NCBI GenBank assembly: GCA_049287205.1
Contig: JBAQFJ010000001.1
Span: 43,156 to 107,155 of the forward strand
DNA: 64,000 nt
Origin: Microgenomates group bacterium
Lineage (GTDB): Bacteria; Patescibacteriota; Microgenomatia; UBA10105; UBA927
Direction: 5' to 3'
Positions within the stretch are counted from its first letter, which is position 1, and every line of letters starts with the position of its first letter. Shown piece by piece: positions 8,136 to 63,918 of the stretch. The notes under the pieces were generated by a model that saw only the letters and a list, made by a program, of their open reading frames with translations, did not search any database and was not told the DNA's origin. Made by a program: the position numbers and the translations under genes.

Positions 8136-15461
<7,326 letters not shown>

Positions 15462-28324: not shown

Positions 28325-28757
28325 CTTTGACTTTCTTCCCCTAACACTGGTATACTAGCTATTCTTTCGGATGGAAATAGCTTCTCAATGCGCTGTTTTT
28401 TATATCTGTAGGAAAATTTGCTCTTTGGTACGTGTCGTCTGGTACTAGCATACTTTTGGTTGTGAGAAGGAAAGAAGAGGAGACTGTGGATACAAGCAAA
28501 AATGATCAGAAACAAGGTACGGACGGGAAGAAAGAAACCGGTTCGGTTTCGGGAAAAGCCTCAGCTGAGCAACAAGAAAAAAAGCTGTCAGAGGCTCATT
28601 TTGACCCATTTACGCATACACCCTATGTGTATGCCCAATATTTCTAATATTGGATAGTTTAAAAAAAGAGCACCATCAGCAAACGCCTGAAATCTTATAT
28701 GAGTACCGATATATATCGGATGTATGAGTAAGTAGGGCGTTGTTTTTTTGGTCTTTT

Positions 28758-28943
28758 TTGACTTTTCATAAGCAGAGCATATAATCAGCTTATATTTGTT
28801 GTCCCTGCCGGCACTTTGCGCCGGTTTTTTTTGGAGCAACACATAGTATTTTTGCTCTTTGACATATCGTGTGAATACAAGAGTATTTCTTATTGATAGG
28901 CAACGATATAGCCCTTTTTGGGGTTATATGTTTTGCCTATCAA
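28758..28943 (+). promoter_or_regulatory. leader module copy 1: consensus promoter, hairpin+T-run, conserved 15-mer, long-range stem
   Basis: TTGACT(28758)-16-TATAAT(28780-28785). Hairpin ccggc/gccgg at 28808-28824 with a T8 run. CTTTGACATATCGTG at 28857-28871. 12-bp stem attgataGGCAA / TTGCCtatcaat at 28892-28903 / 28932-28943. Confidence 0.5.
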
Positions 28944-28970
28944 TTGAGTTCAAATGTAGAAAGGTGCAAA

Positions 28971-29489
28971 ATGAAAGCACTAAAAGTGGTTGGCCTAGTC
29001 ATTGTTGCAAAAAAAGAGGGAGGAAAAGAAGAATTTTTTCAGATTGTCAGTGTGAGCACACGTGAAGACTGGTGTGCATTAATGGTGAAGTGGAAAAACA
29101 ATGCTTGGGGGAAAGATACGTGTGCTATTGTGGATCGTGATGATATGGTCTGGATAGATTGTAAAGGAATATCAAAGCCGTATGATGTTCGGGTGTTTAC
29201 GGAAGACGACAGATGGAATCGACATCTTCCAGAATCGTTCTATGAGTTCTCGGTTCTTCCTGTAAATCCATGTTTTCTCACAGAAAGAATGACTGAAATG
29301 CTTCGCATGATCAATCGTGAATTAGAGAATCTTATCATTGCATATCCGCGCATTCAGTCGGATCTCCCGTCTAAGGATATAAAGGATCTGCATACTTTTT
29401 GTTTAAACTATGCGAGTAATTTAGACCTTATTAAACAACAGATTGCATCCTTAGAGGGTCTATCTACCATACAAGAAACGGAGTCATAA
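28971..29489 (+). CDS. hypothetical protein (172 aa)
   Basis: RBS aaaggtg, then MKALKVVGLVIVAKK... The track ORF 28893.. extends into the leader stem. Confidence 0.55.
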   Translation: MKALKVVGLVIVAKKEGGKEEFFQIVSVSTREDWCALMVKWKNNAWGKDTCAIVDRDDMVWIDCKGISKPYDVRVFTEDDRWNRHLPESFYEFSVLPVNPCFLTERMTEMLRMINRELENLIIAYPRIQSDLPSKDIKDLHTFCLNYASNLDLIKQQIASLEGLSTIQETES

Positions 29490-29869
29490 TGAAACAAATG
29501 TTAGAAAAAGGTGTTATGGTGGCGATTACACAGCCAGTGCACAGCTATCCAAAAGGAACTGTTGGGCACGTCACCGGTAGTCAACAAGGTGTTTGGGACG
29601 TGGAGATTGGAAATACATCAATTCCTGTGTTCGAGCAGTTTCTGAAACGCATTTCACTGAGTATGCGAGATGCACGGCCAGGTACTATTTGCGTTCTCTT
29701 GAAAGATGAAACCTGGGCCCGTTCTGGGACAATCGTTACCGTTAGGGAACAATTGGGGAATCACGTTACAGTAGCAAAACGCGGTTCGTTACCATGGTGG
29801 GACATATTACCAATACAGTTGCGGAAAGCAACAGTTAAAGAGATGTTTCGCTACTTATTCACGCGATGA
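29489..29869 (+). CDS. hypothetical protein (126 aa), translationally coupled (TAATG) to upstream gene
   Basis: 1-nt stop/start overlap. No recognisable family. Confidence 0.55.
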   Translation: MKQMLEKGVMVAITQPVHSYPKGTVGHVTGSQQGVWDVEIGNTSIPVFEQFLKRISLSMRDARPGTICVLLKDETWARSGTIVTVREQLGNHVTVAKRGSLPWWDILPIQLRKATVKEMFRYLFTR

Positions 29870-30096
29870 ACAAAAGAGAAAGCACACCCAAACTTTGGTT
29901 ATCTATGAGCTGAGGTCTCATACAAAGTTGTTCGTTAGGGGTGTGTTTTTTTTGGTGTTGACAGAGTGTAGGGGATTCTGGTTAAATAGAAAAAAGCGCT
30001 CGAAAAACAAGCTTTTTCAGGCGCGTTTTTGTTTTTTCTCAAGTAACGAACGATCGCAACATCCTTGGAGACGTTCACCAAACGGAAAAACAACCT

Positions 30097-30876
30097 ATGA
30101 CCAGTCCAGAATCATCACCAGCAGGACGAATGTTTATCCCAATGGGAGGAGATAATTCCTGCGGTAAAAGTGCACTTGCCAGAGAATTAAGTTTGTATTT
30201 TCGGAGTCCGGAAGATGGTCATGATCCAATTCCTACCTATGTTGTTCATGCGGGAGATTTTTTTCGCCACATGGCAAGTATTCCTGAAGGATTTCCCCTT
30301 GATACACCGGAACAAATTCGTAATTCCGCTGCAATTGCGCTAGAACACATGCAGTGCAAGGTCAATCCAGAGACAGGCGAAATGTTTCTTAGCAATGGTG
30401 TTGATCTGTTTAAACAAAATGTGGCAAATGGTCATGGTGGCTCGAAACTCGGGAGCAATCCCCATCTTGCCGAATTTGTCGGTGATGTGATTTTTGGTTT
30501 GTTTGAACAATGGTTACCGAAAAACGAGAAAGGAATAGGACTCGTTGAAGGGAGAGAAGATTGGGGAATTGATGGACTGGCGCTTCGCATAAACGCCCGG
30601 ACTGGTGTTCGTCGTGAATTTTTTCGTCAGGAGCGGGAAGAAGCAGTGCATTGGAGCATTGAAAAAGTAAATGAGACGATCTTTGCGCGTGATGCGCTTG
30701 ATGCACCTATTTTAGCGCCACTGAAGGCCAGAGAAACCAACATTGTTACAGTTACCCGAGTAGATAACACCGAACACGCTACACGGCAACTGGCGAGGCA
30801 GATTAGCGGTATTATTTTTGATTATCGTGAAGGAAAAATTCCTGCAAATTTTGGTGTTATTCCTATCAGCGGATAA
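30097..30876 (+). CDS. P-loop NTPase, divergent cytidylate-kinase-like
   Basis: Walker A GGDNSCGKS. C-terminal ARDALDAPILAPLKA resembles Cmk RDxxDxxRxxAPLKxA. Confidence 0.4.
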   Translation: MTSPESSPAGRMFIPMGGDNSCGKSALARELSLYFRSPEDGHDPIPTYVVHAGDFFRHMASIPEGFPLDTPEQIRNSAAIALEHMQCKVNPETGEMFLSNGVDLFKQNVANGHGGSKLGSNPHLAEFVGDVIFGLFEQWLPKNEKGIGLVEGREDWGIDGLALRINARTGVRREFFRQEREEAVHWSIEKVNETIFARDALDAPILAPLKARETNIVTVTRVDNTEHATRQLARQISGIIFDYREGKIPANFGVIPISG

Positions 30877-30895
30877 TTTTCTCTTAATTTCACGA

Positions 30896-30933
30896 GGTTC
30901 AGACCCTGTCAGGGTCCTGTCAGGGTCTGAACC
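30896..30933 (+). terminator. hairpin with perfect 13-bp stem (ggttcagaccctg ... cagggtctgaacc)
   Basis: Perfect inverted repeat 20 nt after the stop codon at 30876. A T-rich tract follows 9 nt later. Confidence 0.5.
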
Positions 30934-30948
30934 TGAGGCTACGAATTT

Positions 30949-31119
30949 TTGACTTTTTCTTCCCTGGGCATATAATACCCACTAGTACAATTTGTCTCTG
31001 CCTTTCGCTTGCGAAAGGTTTTTTGTGGCAATCAAGTATTTTTTCGTTCTTTGACATATCGTGTGAAAAAAATGTGGGCAAGGTGGTGTCGTCAATATAT
31101 TGACGGTTTATTTTGCCCA
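30949..31119 (+). promoter_or_regulatory. leader module copy 2
   Basis: TTGACT(30949)-16-TATAAT(30971-30976). Hairpin cctttcgc/gcgaaagg at 31001-31018 with a T6 run. CTTTGACATATCGTG at 31049-31063. Stem tgGGCAA / TTGCCca at 31075-31081 / 31113-31119, enclosing the perfect 16-nt palindrome cgtcaatatattgacg (31090-31105). Confidence 0.5.
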
Positions 31120-31166
31120 TATATGGGTTAGTTGTTTTTATTTGAGATTCGGGGAAAAGGAGCAGT

Positions 31167-31445
31167 ATGGAAGATGCAGTGTTTGATCAGATAGGTACGT
31201 TGTTGGATTTGGTTTCTGGCAAAGCGGGGTGTGATGAAGATGGAGTGGATAGAGTGGAACAGGTGATTTTGCTTTTGAAGAACAATCCACCAACAGCTGA
31301 TCAGATGGTATCCATTCAGGAACAGTTTTGTACGACAATACGTCGTATTGATCCGATAAAAGCAAAGGATACACATCGGGAGCTTACAGTTGCAATAGAA
31401 AATGTGTTGCCGACATTCCGTGCGCAGAGTAACCAATCGTTATGA
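31167..31445 (+). CDS. hypothetical protein (92 aa)
   Basis: RBS aaaggagc. No recognisable family. Confidence 0.5.
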   Translation: MEDAVFDQIGTLLDLVSGKAGCDEDGVDRVEQVILLLKNNPPTADQMVSIQEQFCTTIRRIDPIKAKDTHRELTVAIENVLPTFRAQSNQSL

Positions 31446-31465
31446 ATTTATAAAACGGAGGAAGA

Positions 31466-32011
31466 ATGAAAACGATACAAACTATCCAAGCAGTCCATCC
31501 ACTGCAAACAATGGTGGATGTGTCGAAACTTGTGCAACAGACGACGGATTTGTTTTTGTTGTCTTGTTATCTGAATGAAATTTTAGAGTTGATTTCCGAT
31601 GTTAAAAAGTTTAGGAAACAGCATGCTGGGTTGCCGGTTTTTCCGCTGTTTACCAATATTATCGATCCTGAGACGTTGGTGTTGTTTAAACGTAGTGTTG
31701 AGGATCGGAAACAATGGATTTTTATGAATAAAACAGACGATTCTGGAAGAACATTTACATCGGAAGAAGCAAAACAAATTCATCTTCTGTGTACGGAAAT
31801 TATCGAAAAGATTGATAGTCTTTTGGGTACATTTTTTATCTTACGCAATGCGTGTAACGGATATTTTGCAGGCCAACTGGTTCGATTGAAGTATTATACA
31901 GGACAAATTGCTTCCGTTACTCCCATGTTCCCGCATCAGGATGCGTGGGGATTTTCTTTGAATAAAGATTTGCTTCAACCATATGAAGATAGCCTAAAAA
32001 AGATGAATTGA
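31466..32011 (+). CDS. hypothetical protein (181 aa), paralog of next gene
   Basis: RBS acggagga. TTDLFLLSCYLNEILELISD matches TKDLFLLAAMVRAVLDILND in the next ORF. Confidence 0.6.
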   Translation: MKTIQTIQAVHPLQTMVDVSKLVQQTTDLFLLSCYLNEILELISDVKKFRKQHAGLPVFPLFTNIIDPETLVLFKRSVEDRKQWIFMNKTDDSGRTFTSEEAKQIHLLCTEIIEKIDSLLGTFFILRNACNGYFAGQLVRLKYYTGQIASVTPMFPHQDAWGFSLNKDLLQPYEDSLKKMN

Positions 32012-32059
32012 AAGAAGTATTGCGGAGACTTTATATTTCAGAGAAGAAGGAGTGATACG

Positions 32060-32659
32060 ATGAAAACACGTGCATCAATTGTTGATGCTGCTCTGCAGCA
32101 AATCAGTGAATCAAATCAATTATATTGGCGATCGTTTTGTGCCACATTGCGTCGTACGAAAGATCTTTTTTTACTTGCCGCAATGGTACGAGCAGTGTTG
32201 GATATACTCAATGACCCGGATATGTATCGCGACTTACACTGGGGTCAATTGCCATTAACCAATCATGAGGTCGATGCTGATGCATTACGTGCATTTCGTG
32301 CGTGCATACTGTCGCGTCAGCGGTGGTTGCTGCGGCAGTATTATCAGAATGTGGAAAAAGGCGTATATGTAACCCTTTTTAAGGATGTACACCCTGTGTA
32401 TCAGGCCTGTCAGCGAACGATCGATTTCATCAGTCTTCGTCTTGACCATTGGGAATTGCGTCACCGGTTTGTCGGCAAACAATACACATTAATCGGTCCG
32501 CATAATGGGCATGGCGACAATACACTCGTAGTCTGTGTTGACGTATTGAGCGAGCATGCATTGGCCGTGCGTCCAGTCATCAAGACGGGGAATGACAGCA
32601 GTTTTCATGTCGATCTTGCATGTCTGAAACCATTGGATGATGAATCTCTCTCTACTTAG
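32060..32659 (+). CDS. hypothetical protein (199 aa), paralog of previous gene
   Basis: RBS gaaggag. Shared N-terminal motif with the 31466 ORF. Confidence 0.6.
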   Translation: MKTRASIVDAALQQISESNQLYWRSFCATLRRTKDLFLLAAMVRAVLDILNDPDMYRDLHWGQLPLTNHEVDADALRAFRACILSRQRWLLRQYYQNVEKGVYVTLFKDVHPVYQACQRTIDFISLRLDHWELRHRFVGKQYTLIGPHNGHGDNTLVVCVDVLSEHALAVRPVIKTGNDSSFHVDLACLKPLDDESLST

Positions 32660-32719
32660 AGTCTCTAGTTTTTGGATACCCTTAGACAATGACGTCTAAA
32701 TCACACGATATTCTATCTA

Positions 32720-32779
32720 ACACCTATACAAGTTTTGAGCCAAGGAGGTCTCAAATATATTGTATAGGTGTTTTGTTTT
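32720..32779 (+). terminator. intrinsic terminator (10-bp stem cacctataca/tgtataggtg, 30-nt loop, T-run)
   Basis: Perfect inverted repeat at 32720-32729 / 32761-32770, followed by ttttgtttt. Confidence 0.5.
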
Positions 32780-32877
32780 GTGGATTCGTAGCTCTTTTCG
32801 AGGCTTCGAGAAAAAGCGTACGAGACACGACACCCGAAGGGTGTGTGATTTCCACCTCATTTTGAGGCTAGCCTCGC

Positions 32878-33059
32878 TTGACTTTTCCATCAGAATATCC
32901 TATAATATTAGCTCTCAGAGCTCTCGATACTCGGCGTTAGCGCTTGGTTTTTTGGGGCTTTGAGAAATATAGCTCTTTGACATATCGTGCAAATTTCTTA
33001 TTCATTGTAGGCAGCCCTATATCACGCTTTTGAAGCTGATATTTATTCTGTCTACAATG
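32878..33059 (+). promoter_or_regulatory. leader module copy 3
   Basis: TTGACT(32878)-17-TATAAT(32901-32906). Weaker hairpin and a T6 run near 32930-32956. CTTTGACATATCGTG at 32975-32989. Stem cattgtag / ctacaatg at 33003-33010 / 33052-33059, which abuts the RBS gaggag. Confidence 0.5.
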
Positions 33060-33069
33060 AGGAGAAGAC

Positions 33070-33339
33070 ATGGAAACAGGAATGGAACGTAGAATTACCA
33101 GTCGTCATGATTTGGAAAAAACCATGGTGGTTATCAAACACACTCGTGGTAAAAGCCAAAAAGTTGTTCTGGCAACCGATCCGTATGAAAAAATACCAGG
33201 AGAATGGTATATCAATATCGCACCTGTGGATAATCCACAAGAAGAAAATATTAAAACACTCAGTCTTTTGGTATACGGTGTCGCAGATGTGCAGCCAAAC
33301 ACTCTATACTGGCTTGAATTTGTCGGTACGGTAGCTTAA
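33070..33339 (+). CDS. hypothetical protein (89 aa)
   Basis: RBS gaggag. No recognisable family. Confidence 0.5.
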   Translation: METGMERRITSRHDLEKTMVVIKHTRGKSQKVVLATDPYEKIPGEWYINIAPVDNPQEENIKTLSLLVYGVADVQPNTLYWLEFVGTVA

Positions 33340-33353
33340 ATAGGAGAAATGGA

Positions 33354-33812
33354 ATGCGAAAACATACTGTTGTACTGTTTGTTGATGGAAATTCTATTGG
33401 TGTTGTCACCAAGAACTTGTTTTTTCGAAGGAAAAAGCGGGTTCGGTTTTCCTTCCGTAACATTGTTACATTTATGGATATTCCCACTGTGTTACTTCGT
33501 CCTGCAACAGAAGATGAGATTGTCTCGTACCTTGCGGTGCTTTTTCCGCGGGATCCCGGACAGTCGATTTTTTTGGCGGCAAAGAATCAGGTGACACTGT
33601 CACTGATTGCATTGTTGCAAGAGCGCGGCATGGAAAAACATGTGCTCAACGCCATTGATAAAGTGGCTTTGTCGGTACATGCAGGAGAAGTGGCAAGGTC
33701 GACAGTGGAAGTGTTTTATGCAGCGTTCAATCTGACATCTGGTATTGATACTGGAGGTGCATTGTCTGCCGCAATCGGTGTTCAACAACAAATTTCCATC
33801 TGCGGGTGGTAG
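33354..33812 (+). CDS. hypothetical protein (152 aa)
   Basis: RBS aggaga. No recognisable family. Confidence 0.5.
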   Translation: MRKHTVVLFVDGNSIGVVTKNLFFRRKKRVRFSFRNIVTFMDIPTVLLRPATEDEIVSYLAVLFPRDPGQSIFLAAKNQVTLSLIALLQERGMEKHVLNAIDKVALSVHAGEVARSTVEVFYAAFNLTSGIDTGGALSAAIGVQQQISICGW

Positions 33813-33818
33813 AGAAGA

Positions 33819-34154
33819 TTGGAGAAAAAAATGGCAAAGACACCAAGCATTCTACATCCAAACGATCAGCATAGCTTAACAGCAAAGCAGCACCCGTTCT
33901 ACCCGTTTCCTGAATCTGAAAAGGGACCGGTTGATCCAAACAAATACACCCATATTTTTTCGGGTGCGATGAAGCGAGACGAAGTGATTGCATTGCTCAA
34001 AAATATTCAGGTACTCCATAACGAACCTGTCCGATTCTGTGTGGATCAAAGCTTGTGGATTTCGATCAAGGCGCAGGTACAGGCATTGTTGGAGATCTGG
34101 AAAGCCGATGCGGAAGTTATCGAAGTAGTCAATGCAACGTTGCTTCTGTTTTAG
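33819..34154 (+). CDS. hypothetical protein (111 aa)
   Basis: Follows the upstream gene closely. No recognisable family. Confidence 0.45.
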   Translation: MEKKMAKTPSILHPNDQHSLTAKQHPFYPFPESEKGPVDPNKYTHIFSGAMKRDEVIALLKNIQVLHNEPVRFCVDQSLWISIKAQVQALLEIWKADAEVIEVVNATLLLF

Positions 34155-34191
34155 TAGTATACATAGTTCATATGAAAGGATCGAGAGTGCT

Positions 34192-34557
34192 GTGAAGACT
34201 TACTCTGTCGCTGATGTTGAATTGTTGATTCACCGATTATCAGCCAGCAATCATGCGACGACTGATACAGGCATCTTAAATAAACTCAAACAAGCGTTTC
34301 AACAAGATCCGCCATTGGTGTTGCCGAACTATCAAAAACAAAAACTCGCAACGCTTTTGTTTGCGCTTTTGGGATCACCATCCCATAGTGGATATGTAGC
34401 CAAATATCGACTTGCAGCCGTTGAACTTTTGGGTTTCATTGGAGACAAAAGTGTTCGCAATGTTCTTGCTGAACGACTGAAAGTGGAATGGTTTGATTCC
34501 ATTACTAATATATTACGGACGGCAATTGAAGCAATTGATCAACGATTGAAGAAATAG
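34192..34557 (+). CDS. HEAT (PBS-lyase-like) repeat protein
   Basis: RLAAVELLGFIGDKSVRNVLAERLK matches a HEAT_PBS-type repeat. The probable start is GTG 34192, since the track ORF 34132.. overlaps the upstream gene. Confidence 0.45.
   Translation: MKTYSVADVELLIHRLSASNHATTDTGILNKLKQAFQQDPPLVLPNYQKQKLATLLFALLGSPSHSGYVAKYRLAAVELLGFIGDKSVRNVLAERLKVEWFDSITNILRTAIEAIDQRLKK

Positions 34558-41630: not shown

Positions 41631-41631
<1 letters not shown>
39736..41631 (+). CDS. membrane-bound one-component regulator: N-terminal HTH (Xis/MerR-like) + multi-TM region + extracytoplasmic Cache-like sensor domain + C-terminal TM
   Basis: [44 protein letters not shown] is an HTH_17-type motif. About 8 TM helices. 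A ~250-aa domain resembles a Cache fold ([16 protein letters not shown]...YFQDA...VFSG...YTIIMASPI...[12 protein letters not shown]) and is followed by a final TM helix. Its TAA stop overlaps the ATG of the next gene. Confidence 0.55.
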
Positions 41632-45869
<4,238 letters not shown>

Positions 45870-63559: not shown

Positions 63560-63918
63560 TCAAGCCTTTTAAAAAACAAACTGGTTTCGGATAGACCCAG
63601 GAAGCACTGGATAAATGAGCCGTTTCGTGACCGCCTGCCTTCAGTCACGCTGTACTACTATTACCCAGCACTTCCCGGATCTAACCGTCGTTTCTATCTG
63701 GAAGAATTTTTCCCTGTATGCCTTGTTAAAGAGCAATGTTTGTTTTGCATCTGTGTCACGCATATGTGATACAGGTACGGACAAACAATTCCTGACTTTG
63801 TGAGTCAGGAACAGATAGTGAAGTCCTCACTACCTGTTTCTGACCACACCCTACGGGTGTCGTCACTCGTACACTGTTTTTCGATGACTCAAAACAGTTA
63901 CGAATTGACAAAAATAAA
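63560..63918 (+). ncRNA. candidate structured RNA / orphan transcript of unknown class
   Basis: No credible ORF. Several perfect hairpins (cctgact-ttgtg-agtcagg at 63789-63807, ctgtttt...aaaacag near 63879-63907, a UACG-type loop). It ends at an intrinsic terminator. No tmRNA or RNase P signature was recognised. Confidence 0.2.

Follow-up and report, generated by a model that had tools for sequence, protein, structure and literature searches.

A 64-kb stretch of bacterial chromosome (contig JBAQFJ010000001.1; hereafter the window) contains three copies of a repeated leader, each heading an operon of small orphan genes, and this repetition is real. The composite leader, in which an invariant motif lies between two covarying hairpins, is a recognizable variant of a known control system placed ahead of operons without known function. 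On the best reading of its sequence the invariant motif is boxA, the signal that recruits Nus factors at rRNA operons and at the nut sites of phage lambda. On balance, we favor the view that these are rrn- and nut-like Nus-factor leaders, self-contained cassettes that would drive small orphan-gene operons. The first-pass annotation of this DNA had offered processive antitermination among several options, and it is this option that is favored, since the invariant 15-mer reads as a boxA element. The proposal of a new cis-regulatory RNA class fares less well, because the core signal would be of a known class, though the composite leader is absent from Rfam.

Leader anatomy, family and RNA structure

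In all three copies, which lie on the plus strand, the elements follow in the same order, and everything listed in the first-pass annotation is present: a near-consensus sigma-70 promoter, a hairpin at the 5' end of the transcript, an 18-mer, a long hairpin, and a ribosome binding site (RBS). The window has three matches, and no more, to the pattern TTGAC-N16-19-TATAAT (28758, 30949, and 32878, all on the plus strand); 0.18 occurrences are expected from shuffled sequence, and 0 of 100 shuffles reached three. The promoters read TTGACT-16-TATAAT in copy 1 (28758–28785) and copy 2 (30949–30976) and TTGACT-17-TATAAT in copy 3 (32878–32906), with spacers of 16, 16, and 17 nt. The 5'-end hairpin starts at the predicted 5' end of the transcript (28793–28845, 30984–31040, and 32913–32965 in copies 1 to 3, respectively) and consists, as labeled in copy 1, of an outer stem (P1) around an inner hairpin (P2), with the inner GC hairpin followed by a U-run. 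In copy 1, P2 and a run of eight U residues (28807–28832; hairpin itself 28807–28825, folding free energy [dG] −9.9) resemble a terminator, as do the inner hairpin of copy 2 (31000–31019, dG −9.5) and its U6 run, together spanning 31000–31024. The inner hairpin of copy 3 (32929–32948) is weak (dG −5.3), is followed by U6, and was not flagged by a terminator scan.

As had been claimed, exact copies of the 15-mer CTTTGACATATCGTG stand at 28857, 31049, and 32975, and the conserved block is in fact an 18-mer, GYTCTTTGACATATCGTG, at 28854–28871, 31046–31063, and 32972–32989. It begins 65 to 69 nt past the predicted −10 element and is unpaired in minimum-free-energy folds. Within this block the putative boxA is GCTCTTTGACA in copies 1 and 3 and GTTCTTTGACA in copy 2, each with a 3' extension (TATCGTG in copy 1). 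The long hairpin, H2, follows at 28889–28948 in copy 1 (25 bp, dG −29.9, a candidate RNase III-type site), 31072–31122 in copy 2 (22 bp, dG −25.1), and 32995–33066 in copy 3 (28 bp, dG −29.7), where its 3' arm abuts the Shine-Dalgarno sequence GAGGAG. These are the long-range stems anticipated earlier, and the start codons at 28971, 31167, and 33070 lie 100, 104, and 81 nt past the end of the 15-mer, in agreement with the predicted interval of 80 to 105 nt.

The layout recurs outside the window in 22 further copies, found in a related metagenome-assembled genome (MAG) labeled Gammaproteobacteria and on metagenome contigs. A scan with the exact 18-mer located three copies in an 8-kb part of a MAG contig labeled uncultured Gammaproteobacteria (L012) and further copies on ten metagenome contigs, and allowing mismatches added six more. 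A covariance model, R1, built from six copies recovered 25 family members among the window and related contigs and, with filters off, only the three known copies within the window. Element order is the same in 25 of 25 copies. A near-consensus promoter is recognizable in all but one, which has TATAAT after a TGACT −35-like sequence, and in the 21 other copies without inserts the 18-mer lies 60 to 79 nt past the −10 element. The downstream genes differ from one copy to the next, indicating that the leader is a shared module rather than part of a duplicated gene. Small-repeat insertions of 45 to 65 nt separate the terminator-like hairpin from the motif in two copies, and exact spacing between the two is therefore not essential. 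Rfam searches of the leaders at E ≤ 10 returned chance-level matches only, including rseX at 31.6 bits via the terminator. So far, the family is restricted to one rare lineage.

Two small repeats were seen in or near these leaders. A repeated hairpin element (GACACCCGNAGGGTGTG and flanks) occurs twice in the window, at 32829–32845 (plus strand) and 63845–63861 (minus strand), and a version of about 65 nt is inserted within one family leader (L047:3960–4030). The leaders at L017:8585–8717 and L025:2722–2827 each contain an insertion of a different element, the 22-nt palindrome ATCCTGAGCGAAGTCGAAGGAT.

The first ~55 nt of the transcript, from about 7 nt past the −10 element, form one hairpin in every copy, with an outer stem in which the very 5' end pairs with the bases right past the U-run, so that the small GC hairpin lies within it. 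Z-scores for this hairpin ranged from −2 to −5 in 16 of 16 copies tested. In a model-guided alignment of the 25 copies, 84.3% of cells pair (57% in shuffles; 38 to 48% in slid controls) and both-side changes occur at 14 of 16 pairs, values that none of 500 shuffles reached; these counts come from an alignment fitted to the model and so lean toward structure, a point to be set against our interpretation. Given the effect size and the independent per-sequence folds, the 5' stem is nevertheless secure, and the compensating changes first noticed between copies 1 and 2 are real. MAFFT followed by RNAalifold, a nonstructural alignment, did not recover the structure of the 5' domain, and the covariance-model alignment was used instead.

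H2 is present in all 24 copies for which downstream DNA is available, with 21 to 38 bp, dG of −23 to −35, and a mean z-score of −5.2. It starts 0 to 22 nt past the 18-mer and is 50 to 100 nt long, with loops that are unrelated between copies. In its basal stem, six positions switch between G-C and A-U or U-A via G-U around an invariant C-G/A-U step, and hence both hairpins covary in the enlarged family. G-U pairs, frequent in the 5' hairpin and present in H2 too, point to sense-strand RNA rather than DNA as the structured molecule.

Two observations concern sequences at or near the promoters. In leader classes A and B, a −10-like hexamer (TAGTAT, TATATT, or TACAAT) lies in the outer stem, among the first ~10 bases transcribed. 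In addition, positions 28327–28434 may hold a degenerate relative of the leader, with a TTGACT-18-TATACT promoter, TG before the −10 element, a hairpin where the transcript begins, and GCTCTTTGGTACGTG, placed 12 nt ahead of the GTG of a 71-amino-acid open reading frame (ORF); R1 scores it at only 12.3 bits (E 0.8).

The invariant motif as a putative boxA

The first 11 nt of the motif, GYTCTTTGACA in all window copies, match 10 of 11 positions of the gammaproteobacterial boxA consensus, GYTCTTTAANA (PMC5725501). By our own calculation, an arbitrary 18-mer would match that well in any register with a probability of about 4e-4. The family copy at L025:2722–2827 reads GCTCTTTAACATATCGTG and agrees at 11 of 11 positions. 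Variation within the family falls at positions 8 and 9, with one perfect copy (GCTCTTTAACA) and four of the YCTCTTTACCA type; positions 8 to 10 are ACC or AAC in five copies. Positions 3 to 7 and the 3' ATATCGTG are fixed across the family, and positions 1 to 7 are almost fixed.

Published boxA elements include sequences of the same kind. Lists of boxA sequences contain GCTCTTTGACAT variants, and boxA elements with G at position 8 have been reported upstream of CRISPR arrays, namely, CGCTCTTTGACATCGTGAAA in Methylobacterium nodulans and AGCTCTTTGAAAATATGGGA in Thioalkalivibrio (PMC7665894, supplement 4). In the supplementary files of that study, we counted 36 instances of TCTTTGA and 42 of TCTTTAA. 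In Myxococcus xanthus, GCTCTTTGAAA is the boxA located upstream of the 16S rRNA gene (rrnA).

The motif also occurs in stable-RNA operons of other organisms. In L032, a 23S rRNA gene has the exact 18-mer about 95 nt upstream of it, directly after a hairpin; in L036, the 18-mer falls between same-strand tRNA genes. R1, which was built on the leaders, scores the L032 23S leader at 26.9 bits; tblastx and blastn comparisons of L032 with the present lineage found no similarity beyond the motif. The extension following the boxA core is consistent with a Nus site as well. NusA reportedly binds the segment adjoining boxA, where AUA/AUU is critical (PMC2724277), and the extension, AUAUCGUG, starts with AUAU.

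A separate leader on the minus strand (63593–63787) comprises a hairpin, an unpaired TGCTCTTTAACAA at 63723–63735 that is a perfect Escherichia coli-type boxA, and a near-perfect helix of about 23 bp, with a fold z-score of −6.97. It heads a minus-strand operon whose first ORF (63486–63058, 142 amino acids) has no Pfam match; no consensus promoter for it was found within the window. Since this second leader has its elements in the same order, the arrangement of hairpin, boxA, and long helix seems to be a leader design that recurs in this organism.

Several points weigh against reading the motif as boxA in a Nus-factor leader. The motif deviates from the E. coli-derived consensus, having G at position 8 or, in five family copies, C at position 9. 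Neither a Nus-factor gene nor an rRNA operon of this organism is present in the window and the related DNA, and the boxA of its own rrn operons may read differently. The canonical boxA at 63723–63735 lacks the ATATCGTG extension, and the extension could thus serve another factor. Finally, the terminator-like hairpin lies upstream of boxA, and the boxA model leaves that hairpin unexplained.

Quite unlikely, in our estimation, is the alternative that a lineage-specific regulator binding RNA or DNA, or else a trans-acting RNA, recognizes the 18-mer, whose likeness to boxA would be incidental or partial. Besides the absence of the extension from the canonical boxA, this alternative can draw on the extension being as invariant as the boxA part (24 of 25 copies) and on a related UYGYG/AUCGCG motif that recurs, as judged by eye, in the loop of the inner hairpin. 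Against it stand a match of 10 to 11 of 11 positions to boxA, variable motif positions that coincide with boxA positions 8 and 9, an identical 18-mer in rRNA and tRNA operons of other organisms, and the lack of a conserved candidate regulator gene beside the leaders at the family loci.

We regard as highly improbable the scheme in which the strong promoter yields a ~45-nt small RNA (sRNA) or attenuated transcript and the TTGACA within the 15-mer is the −35 element of a second promoter for the mRNA. TTGACA is a perfect −35 hexamer, and copies 1 and 2 have a canonical hairpin and U-run (dG about −10, U6 to U8). Yet no consistent −10-like hexamer was seen by eye 16 to 18 nt downstream in the aligned copies, and TTGACA is replaced by TTTACC or TTTAAC in five family copies that keep the rest of the motif. 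Moreover, the stem joining the 5' end to the bases after the U-run covaries, indicating that the read-through RNA is the selected product, and the U-run is missing in 5 of 25 copies, with a weak hairpin in 8 more. The sRNA and second promoter suggested in the first-pass annotation are therefore not upheld. For annotation more generally, caution is in order, as a 15-mer that includes TTGACA and is perfectly conserved in leaders can be boxA rather than a promoter. Its interpretation as a sigma-54, sigma-28, extracytoplasmic function (ECF) sigma, or antisense promoter was likewise rejected; no conserved partner element was seen by eye in the aligned copies.

Prompted by the CGTG at the end of the motif, we also considered an ops-like element that would recruit an RfaH-type NusG paralogue via the nontemplate DNA strand, a probability close to negligible. 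Over its final 12 nt, TGACATATCGTG, the motif agrees with the ops sequence, GGCGGTAGCGTG, at 7 of 12 positions and fits the pause pattern G(−10)/Y(−1)/G(+1); the position in the 5' untranslated region (UTR) fits too. Against this stand the matches at just 7 of 12 positions, a conserved block that runs 6 nt further 5', exactly over the boxA core, the lack of any JUMPstart match in Rfam even at E ≤ 10, and the lack of an RfaH/NusG homologue in the window or related loci, the genome being incomplete. The idea was dropped after the boxA match was recognized.

Proposed mechanism and comparison with known systems

A model for the leaders as Nus-factor leaders of the rrn and nut type is proposed from these features. 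Transcription would start at the near-consensus sigma-70 promoter, and the first ~55 nt would fold as the single covarying hairpin, which would take the place that boxB has in rrn leaders. After a U-rich linker, the invariant GYUCUUUGACAUAUCGUG would be presented single stranded, with its first 11 nt serving as boxA, the binding site of NusB-NusE(S10), and AUAUCGUG positioned where NusA binds beside boxA in rrn and nut RNAs. We infer that this binding, together with NusA, NusG, and SuhB, would tether the leader to the elongating polymerase, most likely resulting in Rho-resistant, processive transcription of the small operon. RNase III-type processing is the probable role of the 21- to 38-bp hairpin that separates boxA from the RBS: its helix has the size of an RNase III substrate (~20 bp or more, near-continuous), and RNase III acts on the 16S stem beside the rrn leader boxA (PMC4807359). 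It also acts, according to a paper citing Wilson et al. (2002), in the lambda nutL-N leader, where it modulates repression. Once H2 is cut, the coding RNA would no longer be joined to the tethered leader, similar to what occurs in the nutL-N leader and beside the rrn boxA.

The terminator-like hairpin is not accounted for by this model. A strong hairpin with a U-run (dG ≤ −8 and 5 to 8 U residues in the 8 nt after the stem) is found in 12 of the 25 copies; another 8, copy 3 among them, have a weak one, and the other 5 have none. Just 15 to 20 nt precede the inner hairpin, and these are paired with bases past the U-run. No mutually exclusive antiterminator fold was found in the folds of the leaders, because the hairpin is nested in the larger covarying stem, and no Rfam riboswitch or leader matched. 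Complexes of the rrn type resist Rho-dependent terminators, not intrinsic ones. Because its strength varies and five copies lack it, the terminator-like hairpin is at most an optional attenuator and not a defining part of the module; the attenuator proposed in the first-pass annotation may hold for this promoter-proximal hairpin. Where present, the inner hairpin and U-run may end some of the transcripts at about +40, bleeding off part of the output of a very strong promoter.

The strongest rival, which we consider credible but on the unlikely side, accepts the boxA and reverses its effect. In this scheme, which resembles suhB, the Nus complex would keep the leader on the polymerase and block the first RBS, and Rho would terminate transcription; abundant free Nus factors would lower expression of the island, and cleavage at H2 would relieve the block. 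Both protein-coding boxA targets that have been tested experimentally so far (suhB and CKO_00699) are repressed, a fact that also counts against our preferred direction of effect, and repression is retained when boxA and the Shine-Dalgarno sequence are as much as 100 nt apart (PMC5725501); the corresponding distance to the start codon here is 81 to 104 nt. The lambda nutL-N leader has the same logic, with RNase III modulating repression. On the other hand, the order of hairpin and boxA mirrors that of rrn leaders and of the L032 23S leader, and the modules have near-consensus promoters and head multigene operons. The sequence data give no sign of the direction of the boxA effect, antitermination or repression.

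Unlikely, too, is a more elaborate version of our model, a portable "rRNA-operon mimic" that would couple the orphan island to ribosome synthesis with a nested promoter-proximal terminator and a lineage-specific factor as extra controls absent from rrn leaders; as part of the same conjecture, that factor would read AUAUCGUG, the UYGYG in the inner loop, and the fixed C-G/A-U pairs at the base of H2.

Among the known systems closest to the putative Nus-factor leaders is the rrn antitermination leader (boxB, boxA, and boxC with NusB, NusE, NusA, and NusG as well as SuhB). Shared features are a hairpin and then a single-stranded boxA just past a strong promoter, the boxA core GYUCUUU, an A/U-containing segment after boxA where NusA binds, a nearby long helix of the type cut by RNase III, and, in L032, the identical 18-mer ahead of a 23S rRNA gene. 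Unlike rrn leaders, those described here drive short protein-coding operons, have G at boxA position 8 or C at position 9, form the long helix as a local hairpin instead of by leader-spacer pairing, and in many copies place an intrinsic-terminator-like hairpin upstream of boxA. The boxA elements of protein-coding genes and CRISPR arrays in Proteobacteria (Baniulyte et al. 2017; Stringer et al. 2020) also lie in the 5' leaders of non-rRNA units, may occur several times per genome, and include the GCTCTTTGACAT variants on the published list. However, those came from searches of CRISPR leaders or of the 50 nt next to the start codon and have not been portrayed as belonging to a conserved multielement leader, whereas the present boxA lies 81 to 104 nt from the start codon, between two covarying hairpins, with 7 invariant nt attached, and is repeated as a family in one orphan-gene island.

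In the lambda pL-nutL-N leader, too, a strong promoter is followed by a Nus site with boxA, then by a large structure sensitive to RNase III, and then by the first gene's RBS. A lambda-type nut site was nonetheless rejected: no short boxB with a conserved loop follows boxA, no N-like arginine-rich protein or phage gene family was found among the island proteins (the PHROGs search being empty), and the hairpin precedes boxA, as in rrn leaders. An integron attC-like reading of H2 was also rejected, as H2 lacks core sites and each cassette is served by a promoter of its own.

If the motif is boxA, these leaders would represent boxA/Nus control used as a repeated modular leader of protein-coding operons in an uncultured lineage and would lengthen the short list of non-rRNA boxA targets. 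The 25 natural variants form a ready-made mutational series covering boxA positions 8 and 9, the flanking hairpins, and the upstream terminator.

Genomic setting and neighboring elements

The window is bacterial chromosome and carries leuS, comEA/comEC, argH, argG, argS, lepA, and genes for a TPR protein and a collagen-repeat protein; its DNA is also present in three Logan assemblies. No tRNA or rRNA genes were found in the 64 kb, and no Rfam family matched anywhere in the window at its gathering score. The leaders sit in a 6-kb stretch bounded by argS and the TPR gene and made up of ten small genes, all on the plus strand. None of the proteins encoded in this stretch matched Pfam or NCBIfam, and a PHROGs search with the ten island proteins was empty. 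A phage origin of the region was rejected on the latter result and on an equally empty megablast against phage records.

Copy 1 precedes operon A (28971–29869, plus strand), which has two orphan genes (172 and 126 amino acids) with no family match. Copy 2 precedes operon C (31167–32659, plus strand), with three orphan genes (92, 181, and 199 amino acids), the last two being weak paralogues; all-against-all BLASTP of the cassette genes identified this pair, C2 and C3, as the sole related one. Copy 3 precedes operon D (33070–34557, plus strand), with four orphan genes (89, 152, 111, and 141 amino acids). For one of the ten island genes, gene B, a set of 5.8 billion proteins holds no more than four homologous clusters. 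How much the proposed control tells us about biology thus hinges on the function of this orphan island.

Gene B has its own leader (29958–30096), with the promoter TTGACA-18-TTAAAT and a hairpin and T-run (29996–30038) that show compensatory changes relative to L012 and L047. The ~70-nt 5' UTR on the 3' side of this hairpin is almost invariant across three genomes and has no clear Shine-Dalgarno sequence. In Rfam, it matched the Pseudomonas rnk leader at 40.6 bits, short of the gathering score of 55. Elsewhere in the window, a 2,441-amino-acid ORF on the minus strand (8136–15461) reaches a G+C content of 0.63 in a genome of about 0.42, and a gene on the plus strand (41631–45869) encodes a 1,412-amino-acid protein with collagen triple-helix repeats.

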